Positions 228 to 17,580 of a stretch of 33,521 bases of DNA are shown here, in pieces. The stretch is from a virus (taxonomy: Duplodnaviria > Caudoviricetes), in the IMG/VR virus record IMGVR_UViG_3300020042_009936, positions 1 to 33,521 of that record; one strand, written 5' to 3'. The notes beneath the pieces were generated by a model. The model searched no databases and was not told where the DNA came from. It saw nothing but the letters and a program-made list of their open reading frames with translations. The position numbers were made by a program, and so were the translations under genes. Position 1 is the first letter of the stretch. Every line of letters begins with the position of its first letter.

Positions 228-243
228 ACTAAAATCTACAACT

Positions 244-271
244 ATGTTATACTCTATTATAGTATTGTCAA
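244..271 (-). promoter_or_regulatory. sigma70-type promoter for Arg/Asn/Tyr tRNAs
   Basis: TTGACA-N16-TAACAT ending 16 nt upstream of tRNA-Arg. Confidence 0.7.
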
Positions 272-287
272 TAGTTTTAAAAATATT

Positions 288-440
288 GCCCATTTTTTTC
301 ACAGTGTAAAGTGACTCAAAACAAGATCACTTGGGCGCACTGTATGTTTTTTCGCAGATCAGGTCGCTCAGTTGTCTAATATACCGGATTATTTCCAGTA
401 CCCCAAACTACGTCTTAGTGACGACTGCCCTCATTGCTGC
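288..440 (-). ncRNA. Candidate structured ncRNA (irregular hairpin plus H-type pseudoknot), family unrecognised
   Basis: GC-richer non-tRNA insert inside the tRNA operon; stems TACTGGA/TCCGGTA, GCAG/CTGC, ACAGTG/CACTGT, GCCCA/TGGGC, AGTGA/TCACT. Confidence 0.5.
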
Positions 441-462
441 AAAATTATTAAAAGAACAAAAA

Positions 463-595: not shown

Positions 596-670
596 TGGTA
601 GTCCATAAGAGAATCGAACTCTTGTTAATAGGTTGAAAACCTACTGTCCTAACCACTAGACGAATGGACC
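596..670 (-). tRNA. tRNA-Glu(TTC)
   Basis: GGTCCAT acceptor, GTAGG-TTTTCAA-CCTAT anticodon arm, encoded CCA. Confidence 0.95.
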
Positions 671-676
671 GTATCA

Positions 677-750
677 TAGTCCAAGCGGGGTTCGAACCCG
701 CAACTTCACGCTTATAAAGCATGTACTCTTACCAATTGAGTTATTGGACT
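677..750 (-). tRNA. tRNA-Ile(TAT), no encoded CCA
   Basis: CATGC-TTTATAA-GCGTG anticodon arm, GGTTCGAACCC T arm, A73 followed by TGA rather than CCA. Confidence 0.88.
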
Positions 751-774
751 ATAATAAATATGCAATAGTCTCTG

Positions 775-847
775 TGGGTCTTACCGGACTTGAACCGATA
801 ACCGAAAAATTATGAGTTTTTTGCTCTAACCATTGAGCTAAAGACCC
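775..847 (-). tRNA. tRNA-Ile2-like/Met (CAT), no encoded CCA
   Basis: GGGTCTTTAGCTCAATGGTTAGAGC 5' half resembles bacterial tRNA-Ile2; AAAAA-CTCATAA-TTTTT anticodon arm; A73; Ile2 versus Met identity is inferred. Confidence 0.82.
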
Positions 848-889
848 ACAGAAACTACTACATATTAAATTTTAAAAGAACAAAAAAAA

Positions 890-964
890 TGGTGCATCCG
901 GTGGAATTCGAATCCACAACACCCGGCTTAAAAGGCCGATGCTCTACCGTTGAGCTACGGATGC
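890..964 (-). tRNA. tRNA-Lys(TTT)
   Basis: TCGGC-CTTTTAA-GCCGG anticodon arm, encoded CCA. Confidence 0.95.
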
Positions 965-1447
965 ATTATTGAAAGAACAAGGACAATCTATCACACTTTC
1001 TTCGATTGTCAAGGGGTTCTTCATGTTTTTGGGAATTTCTATGACTCCCGCATGAATTTCGTTGTGACAATTTGCACAAACTAAAATGCATTTTTTTAAT
1101 TCTTCTTGTAATTCTTTTTCTGGAATATTTAATCTAAAAAACGCATCAGAAATTTCAAAACATTTTGTACTTGGATTTATGTGATGAAAATTTAATGCGT
1201 TTTGACATTTATCATAAAAACAAATTTGGCATTTGCCACCAAACAAATCAATAGTCTTTTTCTTTTTTATTTGCCGACTCTTTTTTTTGCAGGCTTTGCT
1301 TCTTTCATTACATAAAAATTTGTATGTTGCGTCTGTATGATATCTAACTTTATGTTTTTTACATTTAAGAGTTACCATTATTCTTTCAATGGTTTCTCCT
1401 TGTGAATGTAAAGTTACAATTTGATTCACTAATTCAGGCTCTTGCAT
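944..1447 (-). CDS. HNH homing-type endonuclease
   Basis: CxxC (CQIC), FHHINP and CILVCANCHNEIH motifs, N-terminal HTH-like segment; inserted in the tRNA array; ORF tail runs into tRNA-Lys. Confidence 0.85.
   Translation of the reverse strand: MQEPELVNQIVTLHSQGETIERIMVTLKCKKHKVRYHTDATYKFLCNERSKACKKKSRQIKKKKTIDLFGGKCQICFYDKCQNALNFHHINPSTKCFEISDAFFRLNIPEKELQEELKKCILVCANCHNEIHAGVIEIPKNMKNPLTIEESVIDCPCSFNNASVAQR
985..1012 (-). promoter_or_regulatory. sigma70-type promoter upstream of tRNA-Lys (inside HNH 3' end)
   Basis: CCCCTTGACA-N16-TAGATT then TGTTCTTT; same layout as the promoter at 556-584. Confidence 0.75.
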
Positions 1448-3689: not shown

Positions 3690-4360
3690 AACTCAAATGC
3701 GGCGATTGTATGTTGGAAGGGGTTGCCTTCAATATTCTTTACTAGATTTAACATCTCAGCAGCAATCTCTCGGATTTCTTTCTGAGCATCAGGCTTGTTG
3801 CGAAGCTCAAGGAAGTGATAAAAACTGCGCCAATTAAACATAACATCAGCTTGAATTTGAGAATTATAAGCCTTGAAGAATCGAGCAGATTCCTTGGCTC
3901 GCTTGCGACCTAGAGTTGGCTCAAGGTCTTTAACGCATTGATGATAAAGAGTATTACCAAGATGAGTATAATCTTCAAGTATTGTAGTCCATTTACTATT
4001 TTGGACTCCTTCTTTATCAAAGGTAGATTCAATATCTCCCCAATCACTAGGAATCAAATACTTATCTTCTTTTATCTCTTTATACCTAGCAGATTCACCA
4101 TTAACAGAAGTGCCAACCCTATGTTTTATCAGATGAATGTGGGAAGCTATATCAGTATCAATTAAAAAATGAATGCTAGACTTTTCGAAAGGAGTATGAT
4201 GTCCCGCATCAGCAAGCATCTTAAGAAGTTTAGGAATTCGCCCAATCTTGTCTTCGTTTAAATCTCGGCTTGTAGAAGTCCAAGCTGAACAAGCATGAAC
4301 TTGATCATTGCCATAATAGCCAAGCAACTGAACTTTATTGTCATTTTTATCATTAATCAT
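3686..4360 (-). CDS. thyX: FAD-dependent thymidylate synthase
   Basis: GHHTPFE, KHRVGTSVNGESARY (RHRx7SxR variant), N-RSFYHFLELR...AQ-EIR. Confidence 0.92.
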   Translation of the reverse strand: MINDKNDNKVQLLGYYGNDQVHACSAWTSTSRDLNEDKIGRIPKLLKMLADAGHHTPFEKSSIHFLIDTDIASHIHLIKHRVGTSVNGESARYKEIKEDKYLIPSDWGDIESTFDKEGVQNSKWTTILEDYTHLGNTLYHQCVKDLEPTLGRKRAKESARFFKAYNSQIQADVMFNWRSFYHFLELRNKPDAQKEIREIAAEMLNLVKNIEGNPFQHTIAAFEL

Positions 4361-5127
4361 ATATCTGAAAATTTCTTGATTTCTAACTTACCATTGTTGA
4401 ATACTATATACTCATTTAATCCATTGTCAATGCAAAGATTGTCGCAATCTGCTGGATTCACATTGCCATCCAAATGGTGAGGATTAACTCTACCATTTTT
4501 ATGATAAGTATGACCAACGATTTGTTTTAATCCTTCAATAGGTTGAAACTCTTGTTTAAAATCTAGCCAAACAATTCCTCCACCTTTCTTGGGACCACCT
4601 CGACTTCGGCCAGCATAATAAAACCAATGATTTTGATCTGTCCGTAAAGCAATGTTTGCGCGTTCTATTTCTTTCACAAAAAATAGATTCAAGTCATCAT
4701 TGTTTTTAACAGATGGATCTATGTAATCAGAAAACAGTCCAGCATGAGTACAAAGATAATCATCAATCCAAAAACGCCATTTGAATTTGTTGGTAATATT
4801 TTGACGCTCAGATCCTAGTATTTCATCGATAGCAAAAAATTTTCTATCTTCATACCCACTGCACATAGTATAGTGATTATTAAATAGATAATGTAGATCA
4901 TGATTACCAAAAAGAGTATGGTTATTTGGCGCGGACAGATATCGCATCAAATAATCAGCAGTCTTTTTATAATCATCGTTCTCGTCCAAATTAAAACTAT
5001 CAAACCAATCGCCAAGACAAATATTTATGTCTGCCGATTCGTGCTGAATAATCTTATTGAACTTCTCAATGTTATTGTGAAGATCAGAAAGTAATACTAT
5101 TTTCTTATTGTGACTATCGAATGTCAT
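4357..5127 (-). CDS. Calcineurin-like metallophosphoesterase
   Basis: SDLH, LGD, GNHD, THAG, VGHT motifs in order; start placed at ATG 5127. Confidence 0.9.
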   Translation of the reverse strand: MTFDSHNKKIVLLSDLHNNIEKFNKIIQHESADINICLGDWFDSFNLDENDDYKKTADYLMRYLSAPNNHTLFGNHDLHYLFNNHYTMCSGYEDRKFFAIDEILGSERQNITNKFKWRFWIDDYLCTHAGLFSDYIDPSVKNNDDLNLFFVKEIERANIALRTDQNHWFYYAGRSRGGPKKGGGIVWLDFKQEFQPIEGLKQIVGHTYHKNGRVNPHHLDGNVNPADCDNLCIDNGLNEYIVFNNGKLEIKKFSDI

Positions 5128-15689: not shown

Positions 15690-17580
15690 ATACTTTCAAT
15701 TGAATCTTATCTTTATTATTTTTTGTAAAATTTAAATGCCTACGAGTCTCTAAATAAGGAACGTAAGCGAACTCAAAATGTTTCTTTTCATCGCCGCGAC
15801 CTTCAAAAAATAATGGATCATCCATTTTATCGCAGTAACTTAATACTTTGTGAATATATTTATTTGAAGATACCAGATCAAAATATTGAGGCTTAGTAAA
15901 ATAATAGATATTATGATCAGGATATTCTTCTTTAATCGAAGGCAAAAGAGATGATGTTATAATTACATCTTCTTCGTTTTCTGGCATTACGAATGCAATT
16001 CTTTTGCCGTTATCTTCTTCTGATAGACTTGAAATCATTTTTTCCTTTGTGATTGAATTGTTTTCTACGGTAGCAACTTTCATAAAATAAGCCAACACAT
16101 CTGAACGCTTAAGGTCTGTATTTAATCTTTGAATCCAATGATCAACTCCAGCAGAATCTTTTTTTCCTAAAATATTTATATATAAACTCTCGATCCATTC
16201 TCTATTTGATAAAGAATCATCTGGAATAAAATTAATATTCTTTTCTTTTTCAGTGGAATCTATTTGAGAAAAATCAACGTATGGAAAAGAGTCGAATAAT
16301 TCTTCGAAGAATTTTCCAATAATTTCTATGCTGTAGTTTTCTAGTACAAAATTTCTAGCTTTCTTTCCTAGTAGCAACTTATCTTGTAACGACATTTCGT
16401 ATACTTTTTGCAATTGTTCTGCAATGCTTTTTGGCAATGTAGAAGCTTTGATAAATTGTGTTCCCGGTTCACGATATTCAGCCCACTCAAGAGGAAGACC
16501 TCCGCTTTCTTCAGAACAACAATCTTCGCCACAACTATAATTAGTAACAAGAGTAATTAATTCTGTAAGCTTTGCTTCTTGAATTGGAATTTCTTGTCCA
16601 CCAGATGTAAATGGATGACAATAAACATCCATTAAATTGTAAATTTGATTTAGTTGTTGTTCGTTTACGCCGTTTTTAATATTTGTCGTTTCGCAACTTT
16701 TAGCAGTTTTACAAAATGGACAATCGACATTAACTCCAACGAAATTATTGACATGATAATTATTACAATTTTTGCAAAAATAAGTTGTTAGAATATTTTT
16801 GCTATCAATATTTTTTTCTTTTATGAGGCGGGAAATATCCCACCCTTCTACCCAATGGGTATGTAGAAATAGTTTAGCTTTTGCTGATGGATTTTTATCA
16901 CAAAATAATTTAAATCCATCCAATAGATTAGGAACGCTTTTTCTTAATTGATTTCTAAATACGAAACCAATTATAAAATTATCTTCAATATTAAATAGTT
17001 TTCGCAGCTTCTTCGTTTGATCTAAAGGCAGTTTGTGAAAATCATCGACATCTAAACTTCCTCTTACTGTTTTGACATGTTTATGGCCTAGATCATGCAA
17101 AGCTTTTTCTGCAAAAGAGGCCCATACAAAATAATGTTTAATTTTAGACGCAGCGTCCACAGCGTCTGGTAAAATAGGAACACTATCAAGAGTTGTGTGG
17201 ATAATACAGTTGACCTTATTCCACCAAGGTTTATCATAATATCCATTGAATCCCCAGATATCTTCTATGCCTAGATAAATATCTGGTTTGAATTCATTGA
17301 TAGCTTTATCAATGGTTTCTGATCCATAAGCAAGCATTTGAGAACGCTTTGGATCTTTCTGTATTTCTCTAATAAGTTCTTGGTCGTCAGGAAGAGAACC
17401 AACACACTTCCAAGGAGTGAGTTTAGTAGAATCACTACTCCAAGTAAGAGAATTACTTAATTCAAACAATTCGTATTTTCCAGTCTTATATAAATAAGAC
17501 AACAAATTCTTTTTATGCTTACCGAAGCCGGTAAACATTTTGCAATGATTGCTATGGATCAGAACCTTTTTCTTTTGCAT
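15676..17580 (-). CDS. Glycosyltransferase (GT4-like) with Zn-ribbon insertion and GT9-like N-domain at C-terminus
   Basis: TGFG, RNQLRK, IYNLMDVYCHP..SGGQEIPIQEA; CxxC...CxxC insert; ED VIITSSLLPSIKEEYP. Confidence 0.8.
   Translation of the reverse strand: MQKKKVLIHSNHCKMFTGFGKHKKNLLSYLYKTGKYELFELSNSLTWSSDSTKLTPWKCVGSLPDDQELIREIQKDPKRSQMLAYGSETIDKAINEFKPDIYLGIEDIWGFNGYYDKPWWNKVNCIIHTTLDSVPILPDAVDAASKIKHYFVWASFAEKALHDLGHKHVKTVRGSLDVDDFHKLPLDQTKKLRKLFNIEDNFIIGFVFRNQLRKSVPNLLDGFKLFCDKNPSAKAKLFLHTHWVEGWDISRLIKEKNIDSKNILTTYFCKNCNNYHVNNFVGVNVDCPFCKTAKSCETTNIKNGVNEQQLNQIYNLMDVYCHPFTSGGQEIPIQEAKLTELITLVTNYSCGEDCCSEESGGLPLEWAEYREPGTQFIKASTLPKSIAEQLQKVYEMSLQDKLLLGKKARNFVLENYSIEIIGKFFEELFDSFPYVDFSQIDSTEKEKNINFIPDDSLSNREWIESLYINILGKKDSAGVDHWIQRLNTDLKRSDVLAYFMKVATVENNSITKEKMISSLSEEDNGKRIAFVMPENEEDVIITSSLLPSIKEEYPDHNIYYFTKPQYFDLVSSNKYIHKVLSYCDKMDDPLFFEGRGDEKKHFEFAYVPYLETRRHLNFTKNNKDKIQLKVYEHS

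Follow-up and report, generated by a model that had tools for sequence, protein, structure and literature searches.

The window analyzed here, which is the entire 33.5-kb stretch of a virus record with an estimated completeness of approximately 23%, encodes DnaE, DnaB, a UvsX-like protein, ThyX and HNH proteins together with 10 tRNA genes. The phage collection contained no named close relative of this virus, the top DnaE identity being below 30%; named phages yielded generic tRNA matches only, and two of them with an apparent similarity in the flanks of the tRNA described below, BRkr and Ursula, have a CCA and no stalk. A host search returned a single 62% match in a bin labelled Flavobacterium, which may be a misbinned phage contig, and the protein encoded at positions 8247–8951 resembles, by language-model features, outer-membrane porins of the TorF/Gcw_chp type. 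In four of 22 listed RNA runs, all consisting of assembled contigs, one contig spans positions 764–877 with one difference, a match that speaks to presence in an RNA library only and not to ends, strand or level.

Four tRNA genes on the minus strand, Lys(UUU) (890..964), Ile2(CAU) (775..847), Ile(UAU) (672..756, with the gene itself at 750–677) and Glu(UUC) (596..670), are predicted to be transcribed in this order from a sigma70-like promoter (TTGACA-16-TAGATT, 985..1012, minus strand), and the following sigma70-like promoter is predicted at 584–556 on the same strand. The Lys gene upstream of Ile2 and the Glu gene downstream encode the CCA and have no stalk; the Ile(UAU) gene lies immediately downstream, lacks the CCA and carries a 6-bp extension adjoining the stalk of Ile2, which measures only 3 bp in one relative (L120) and is thus not conserved. 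The 3′-end of an HNH endonuclease ORF (944–1447, minus strand) overlaps tRNA-Lys, and in relatives comparable inserts occupy several slots of the operon and the tRNA bodies are highly polymorphic, a pattern for which gene conversion driven by endonucleases may be responsible. In some relatives (L017, 16400–16700; L002, 8540–8760; L015; L027), small folded cassettes that are not tRNAs and have closing stems separate Lys from Ile2; the window has none at this place, and the non-coding stretch behind tRNA-Leu in the window (240–460) had no Rfam match.

A boxA-like element, GTTCTTTTAAA (871..881, minus strand), was identified just upstream of the stalk of Ile2, with one mismatch to GYTCTTTAANA, a gamma-proteobacterial consensus (PMC5725501). 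Further copies on the minus strand lie at 978, 549 and 457; the four copies stand where transcripts are predicted to begin or behind the 3′ U-tracts of tRNAs, and GTTCTTT occurs four times within 457–978 versus twice on the remaining minus strand. Among the homologues described below, 25 of 32 stalks follow a boxA-like element, which matches GYTCTTTAANA perfectly in five cases and is also found before stalk-less tRNAs. These repeats suggest host Nus-factor antitermination on the phage tRNA operon.

The Ile2 gene (G1 at 847, discriminator A73 at 775) was matched by the Rfam tRNA model at 847–775 on the minus strand with 70.8 bits, and ARAGORN assigned the anticodon CAT. As the preliminary description had noted, no CCA is encoded, the trailer reading ACAG and not ACCA. 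Bacterial tRNA-Ile2 is distinguished from tRNA-Met by G3 or A3 with C70 or U70, rather than C3-G70 (PMC1635315), and G3-C70 is present in the window gene and in 17 of 17 stalked bodies; this pair indicates that the tRNA(CAU) is Ile2 and not Met. Initiator features are likewise missing from the window gene, which has no A11-U24 and a paired 1-72, and relatives encode a separate initiator tRNA. The gene shares with bacterial tRNA-Ile2, whose CAU anticodon receives lysidine from TilS, the cloverleaf, the anticodon, G3-C70, C5-G68 and A73, and differs from it by U4-A69 in the window allele and by a leader and trailer that are fully paired over 19 bp. Most homologous bodies have C4-G69 and C5-G68, both of which are frequent, but not universal, determinants for E. 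coli TilS (PMC1635315).

The stalked bodies keep the tRNA arms and identity elements, and the anticodon loop is invariant among them. The entirely A-U anticodon stem, to which the preliminary description had drawn attention, is indeed present in the window but occurs in only four of 16 stalked bodies and is therefore allele-specific. Several alleles of the Ile2 body, among them those of L002 and L012, have a T loop with A54 and U58 replacing the usual U54 and A58. AUA accounts for 186 of the 732 Ile codons in 30 window ORFs and is presumably read by both Ile2 and the adjoining tRNA-Ile(UAU).

The leader of the Ile2 gene, positions −1 to −19 (5′ arm, 848..866, minus strand), is complementary to the sequence from A73 to U91 (3′ arm, 757..775, minus strand; C74 at 774): 866–848 pairs with 775–757, from U-1:A73 through A-19:U91, by 16 Watson-Crick pairs and three wobbles (U-6.G78, G-11.U83 and U-13.G85). 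This stalk and the 7-bp acceptor stem form a gap-free, continuous helix of 26 bp, in agreement with the preliminary description. RNAfold gave −48.7 kcal/mol (z = −11.2; none of 200 shuffles was equally stable) and, in a comparison of the two strands, −48.2 for the minus strand versus a weaker fold of −36.2 for the plus strand; in the whole predicted transcript (979–585) pairs −1 to −18 had probabilities of at least 0.95 and pair −19 of 0.72. With a per-position pairing probability of 0.38 in the window, a run of 19 pairs is expected by chance at approximately 1e-8, and 2,000,000 random flank pairs yielded runs of up to 15. The other nine tRNAs of the window, Ile(UAU) with its 6 bp included, have no comparable stalk in this calculation, in which flank pairing was computed for tRNAs only, and Rfam contains no family for the stalk. 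All three departures from a perfect inverted repeat are G-U on the tRNA strand, as had been pointed out earlier; this count is weak evidence by itself, as it would arise by chance in one of eight cases were every change a transition, and the argument for selection at the RNA level is carried by the homologues.

Homologous loci were gathered via neighbouring proteins, the tRNA body and the 5′ arm. A portion of the 5′ arm served as anchor for the pooled set, and positions 73–80 for the metagenome scan; the 5′ arm was free in the body-based and metagenome searches, the 3′ arm in the 5′-arm search, and both arms in the protein-anchored loci. Within 67 viral loci containing a tRNA(CAU) and an ACAG trailer, the stalk was found only in the lineage of the window, of which 11 contexts pair at 18–20 of 20 positions, and the others at no more than 12 except for one truncated lineage locus. 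In the metagenome, 47 of 72 loci pair at 15 or more of 19 positions and share the 5′ arm, one more is truncated and 24 are unrelated; an exact search of viral contigs with the tRNA body gave no match. The pooled set comprises 31 distinct contexts with 14 arm pairs and 17 tRNA bodies, and the mean identity is 0.977 for the nearly invariant 5′ arm, 0.901 for the 3′ arm and 0.738 for the body (minimum 0.513). In the other tRNAs of these operons, conservation is usually lower in the upstream flank than in the body: the 19-nt upstream flanks are 0.29–0.67 identical in nine of 10 other tRNA classes, the exception being Lys (0.90).

Where the arms vary, pairing is mostly retained. Pairs −7, −13, −14 and −15 often differ between homologues, always pairing on the tRNA strand by means of G-U, and pair −13, which is U-A in 19 contexts, U-G in 11 and C-G in one, is the sole case of true compensation within the Ile2 stalk. 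Isolated breaks occur at −16, −17 and −19, and the only common break is at −2:74, which is G-C in eight contexts and A.C in 23; position 74 is C in all 31, even where it is unpaired. In an alignment of six sequences, 97.4% of cells pair, a value reached by four of 500 shuffles and compared with 31–54% in slid controls, and two-sided changes in this alignment are confined to the acceptor part. The retained flank complementarity of the stalk-bearing homologues supports the view, already put forward in the preliminary description, that pairing in the stalk is kept by selection at the RNA level.

Stalks were also found on other tRNAs. In the Leu(UAA) slot of relatives (L010, L135 and L129/L134), an intron-bearing, CCA-less tRNA carries a stalk of 17–18 bp; the gene, labelled Lys by ARAGORN, which was taken as a mislabel, is assigned to Leu by its exon junction, and its intron resembles group I introns weakly (E 4e-5, under the gathering score). 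The L010 gene lies at approximately 15830–16390, and the stalked Leu genes have a boxA-like element of their own. The Leu and Ile2 stalks have pairs −1 to −6, −9, −11 and −16 in common, including the wobble G-11.U83, and differ by 7–9 two-sided changes, compared with two within the Leu family; they may be homologous rather than independent. In another relative (L001, 17605–18110), a stalked Ile2 gene is split after U33 by a 436-nt insert, which has sequence blocks common to the Leu and Lys introns and no Rfam match at E ≤ 0.01.

An unrelated phage, L427 (G030/G031), which was reached solely through an unrelated tRNA, has exact 12-bp stalks on its CCA-less tRNAs for Pro and Asn (approximately 4300–4680), corresponding to two of the four CCA-less tRNAs in the stretch read. 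The junction of the G030 Pro stalk is the same as that of the window over five pairs, and G-2:C74 (in the paired allele), U-3:A75 and U-5:A77 are common to all four stalk families. A scan with the junction only, for stalks on other tRNAs, found no tRNA among the best 80 of 121 stretches.

Several relatives of the window virus (L129/L134, L132, L136 and L133) have a stalk-less Ile2 gene with an encoded CCA at its end. This allele occupies the same slot, before Ile(UAU), in L129/L134 and L132, and when the stalked gene is compared with it, each arm resembles an insertion of 16 nt, the two facing each other (−3/−2 and 74/75). The two types of allele interleave on a ThyX tree of 24 rows, of which four are unlabelled, with three changes, at least two of them forced by well-supported branches, and have therefore been exchanged or repeatedly lost. 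After exclusion of genes with a poor acceptor score or short flanks, which reduced 564 tRNA calls to 320 contexts and 1036 to 562, a stalk was present in 39 of 258 CCA-less contexts and in none of 304 CCA-bearing contexts (562 distinct), in a set that is enriched by the searches and represents approximately four origins. The 219 CCA-less contexts without a stalk include the initiator tRNA of the lineage and most of its Tyr tRNAs. Among related phages, whose 14 stalked contexts represent at most two origins, 84 of 98 CCA-less contexts have no stalk, some of them being initiator tRNAs with a misassigned register. A missing CCA, therefore, does not require a stalk, and since most CCA-less tRNAs are stalk-less and close relatives carry stalk-less CCA alleles, the stalk is dispensable for Ile2 in this lineage and represents one among several solutions for this tRNA. 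One related phage, L203 (G023), has tRNAs with neither CCA nor stalks, in which C74 is kept in 23 of 26.

The appearance of the arms as facing insertions, the presence of identical arms around very different bodies and the HNH endonuclease genes in the operon would also be expected if the arms were a DNA-level inverted repeat, either a relic of template switching or a recombination cassette for swapping bodies, with no role as RNA. This explanation is highly improbable, because the frequent substitutions, except that at −2, keep pairing on the transcribed strand only, two of the G-U wobbles show no variation in either lineage family and two-sided changes are present; moreover, the 22 exact matches to the 5′ arm consist of 20 with a forward tRNA and two that are unrelated, with no inverted or empty arrangement. 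An origin by a DNA-repeat event is compatible with a later function of the RNA, and, as judged from these pairing patterns, the stalk is a real feature under selection as RNA.

A function of such an RNA could be to keep the pre-tRNA from being processed and charged, whether as a reserve that a helicase or a phage factor opens later or as a lasting decoy for TilS or for an anticodon nuclease. In favour of this, a paired leader blocks RNase P in the system described in PMC7897497, the discriminator is buried by the stalk, 19 bp exceeds the need of one RNase III half-site, the anticodon loop is invariant and a second reader of AUA adjoins. Such a role is unlikely, however, since stalk-less CCA alleles interleaved with the stalked ones occupy the same slot in close relatives, C74 is retained even when unpaired, and no opening factor was identified. 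The preliminary description had drawn on the A-U anticodon stem in proposing a decoy or tRNA mimic, and this argument is lost with the restriction of that stem to a minority of bodies and with the CCA alleles in the same slot.

Quite unlikely, too, is a stalk that serves merely as an aid to folding or stability, or as an insulator in a recombining operon, and is removed by single-strand nucleases after fraying. Leader-trailer helices aid 16S biogenesis independently of RNase III, as reported in PMC10250234, the body of the window tRNA folds weakly alone (−20.0 kcal/mol, with a probability of 0.05 for the anticodon stem), and boxA-like elements precede most stalks. Yet the stalked and CCA-bearing Ile2 bodies (16 versus eight) have folding energies of −24.5 and −26.5 kcal/mol that do not differ significantly (p = 0.17), acceptor pairing is 0.91 in both, and a mere clamp needs neither the invariant positions −3 to −12 nor the same junction pairs in unrelated phages.

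What the sequences show is the helix itself, conserved on the RNA strand, confined to CCA-less genes and swapped with CCA alleles. Going beyond this, we regard the stalk as, on balance, probably a signal for cleavage by a double-strand RNase of the host, of the RNase III family, which would cut either at the tRNA ends or no more than 3 bp away from them; of the three options raised in the preliminary description, namely an RNase III-type stalk, a locked precursor and a decoy, the first appears to fit best. For RNase III, each half-site has to span approximately 11 bp, the cut ends carry 2-nt 3′ overhangs, and a single half-site can direct the cut (PMC3867540, PMC1540722), and RNase P was blocked by a paired leader in a synthetic system (PMC7897497). 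The 26-bp helix exceeds the requirement of approximately 22 bp, the minimum half-site being 11 bp (PMC3867540). In the proposed pathway, the paired leader would block the ordinary entry of RNase P, the stalk would supply the outer half-site, and the acceptor stem with the stacked T stem would supply the inner half. The tentatively favoured double cut (773..848, minus strand) would fall before G1, between 848 and 847, and therefore, with a 2-nt 3′ overhang, after C74, between 774 and 773; it would produce a 5′-phosphate at G1 and a 3′ A73-C74 end to be completed by the host CCA-adding enzyme. In a more doubtful alternative, the cut would lie outside this position by 3 bp, leaving the ends to be finished by RNase P and exonucleases in the manner of rRNA. 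Host TilS would then allow the tRNA to read AUA. RNase III, CCA-adding enzyme and TilS each gave no match over the cut-off in 23 phage records, in which three weak PF01171 matches lie below it and the stalk-bearing genomes are fragments, 14–43% complete; hence these enzymes are attributed to the host.

All registers of cutting were scored with pair counts for in vivo targets of E. coli RNase III (PMC6212723, Table S4), as a proxy for the host enzyme. The best register in the window is that before G1 (+1), with a score of −19.9 on this E. coli matrix, comparable to the top E. coli targets listed in that table (−19.45 to −26). With the T stem stacked, +1 was best in six of 14 stalks (the G-2 contexts), −3 in seven (A-2) and +2 in one; without this assumption, −3 was best in 12 of 14 and +1 in one, and in shuffled stalks +1 was best in 7–27%. 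When the outer half-site was scored alone (−3 to −13, without the T-stem assumption, over 17 registers), +1 was best in five of five lineage stalks, with shuffle p values of 0.15, 0.01–0.14, 0.04 and 0.21 (combined 0.004–0.04), and the outer half-sites of Pro and Asn peaked at +3 and +6, with +1 only 0.1–0.3 lower.

In the +1 register, the shared pairs fall on preferred positions, with a U-A beside the cut and a U-A at the Q157 contact, and the invariant G-11.U83 puts a G at the H27 contact. The tolerated mismatch at −2:74 sits between the two cuts, where pairing is dispensable in vitro, and the retention of C74 against this mismatch is as expected if it serves as the first C of CCA. Against +1, C-4:G76 is not a preferred pair and G3-C70 gives the inner half a G-C where this pair is inhibitory (PMC1540722); the −3 register likewise has one good half-site. 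Support for the +1 register from these scores is thus moderate, and the register 3 bp further out competes with it.

Bacterial tRNA 5′ ends are taken to be products of RNase P acting on a single-stranded leader, and a tRNA with its leader and trailer zipped over 19 bp needs another route. In the tRNA cluster of phage T4, host RNase III cuts within the leader, formation of the 5′ end still being left to RNase P, and in the precursor stalk of B. subtilis scRNA, RNase III acts on a small stable RNA with paired flanks. The literature consulted, which did not extend to most subscription papers or to the old work on T4 processing, yielded no account of stalks of this kind on the tRNAs of phages. [quoted passage not shown] The phage stalk differs in enclosing a single 73-nt tRNA that is exchangeable with a stalk-less CCA allele and in a predicted cut at or beside the mature ends, and its boxA-like element lies a few bases upstream of the arm, compared with a boxA-boxC spacing of 18–19 nt in rRNA (PMC10250234, PMC3867540).

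In its boldest form, the proposed maturation resembles that of 23S rRNA by Mini-III (PMC4838370, PMC3386247, PMC11780869). Mini-III on B. subtilis 23S rRNA and RNase M5 on 5S rRNA cut both strands of an extended terminal helix, which yields mature ends directly, but act on ribosomal particles, Mini-III being stimulated by protein L3 (PMC4838370, PMC3386247, PMC3867540); the WSSW centre reported for Mini-III (PMC6212723) is not matched at +1 in the phage stalk (U G U G). No tRNA matured by a direct double-strand cut of the Mini-III or M5 type was found in the literature consulted.

The lineage of the window represents a natural experiment, in which the same tRNA slot holds either CCA or a stalk and the prediction is nucleotide-exact; the locus contributes the exchange with a CCA allele, the junction pairs that stalk families have in common and a prediction that specifies the register. 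It is possible, though it must be put tentatively, that phages trade the encoded CCA for a grafted RNase III half-site, a maturation route independent of RNase P that would have arisen repeatedly in viruses. If only the first cut were made by the double-strand RNase, rRNA-type stalks would still be extended to a single tRNA gene. If the cut does fall at G1 and C74, it would constitute an RNase P-independent pathway of tRNA maturation, which would bear on the supply of phage tRNAs under disturbed host processing and on the production of tRNAs from arrays.
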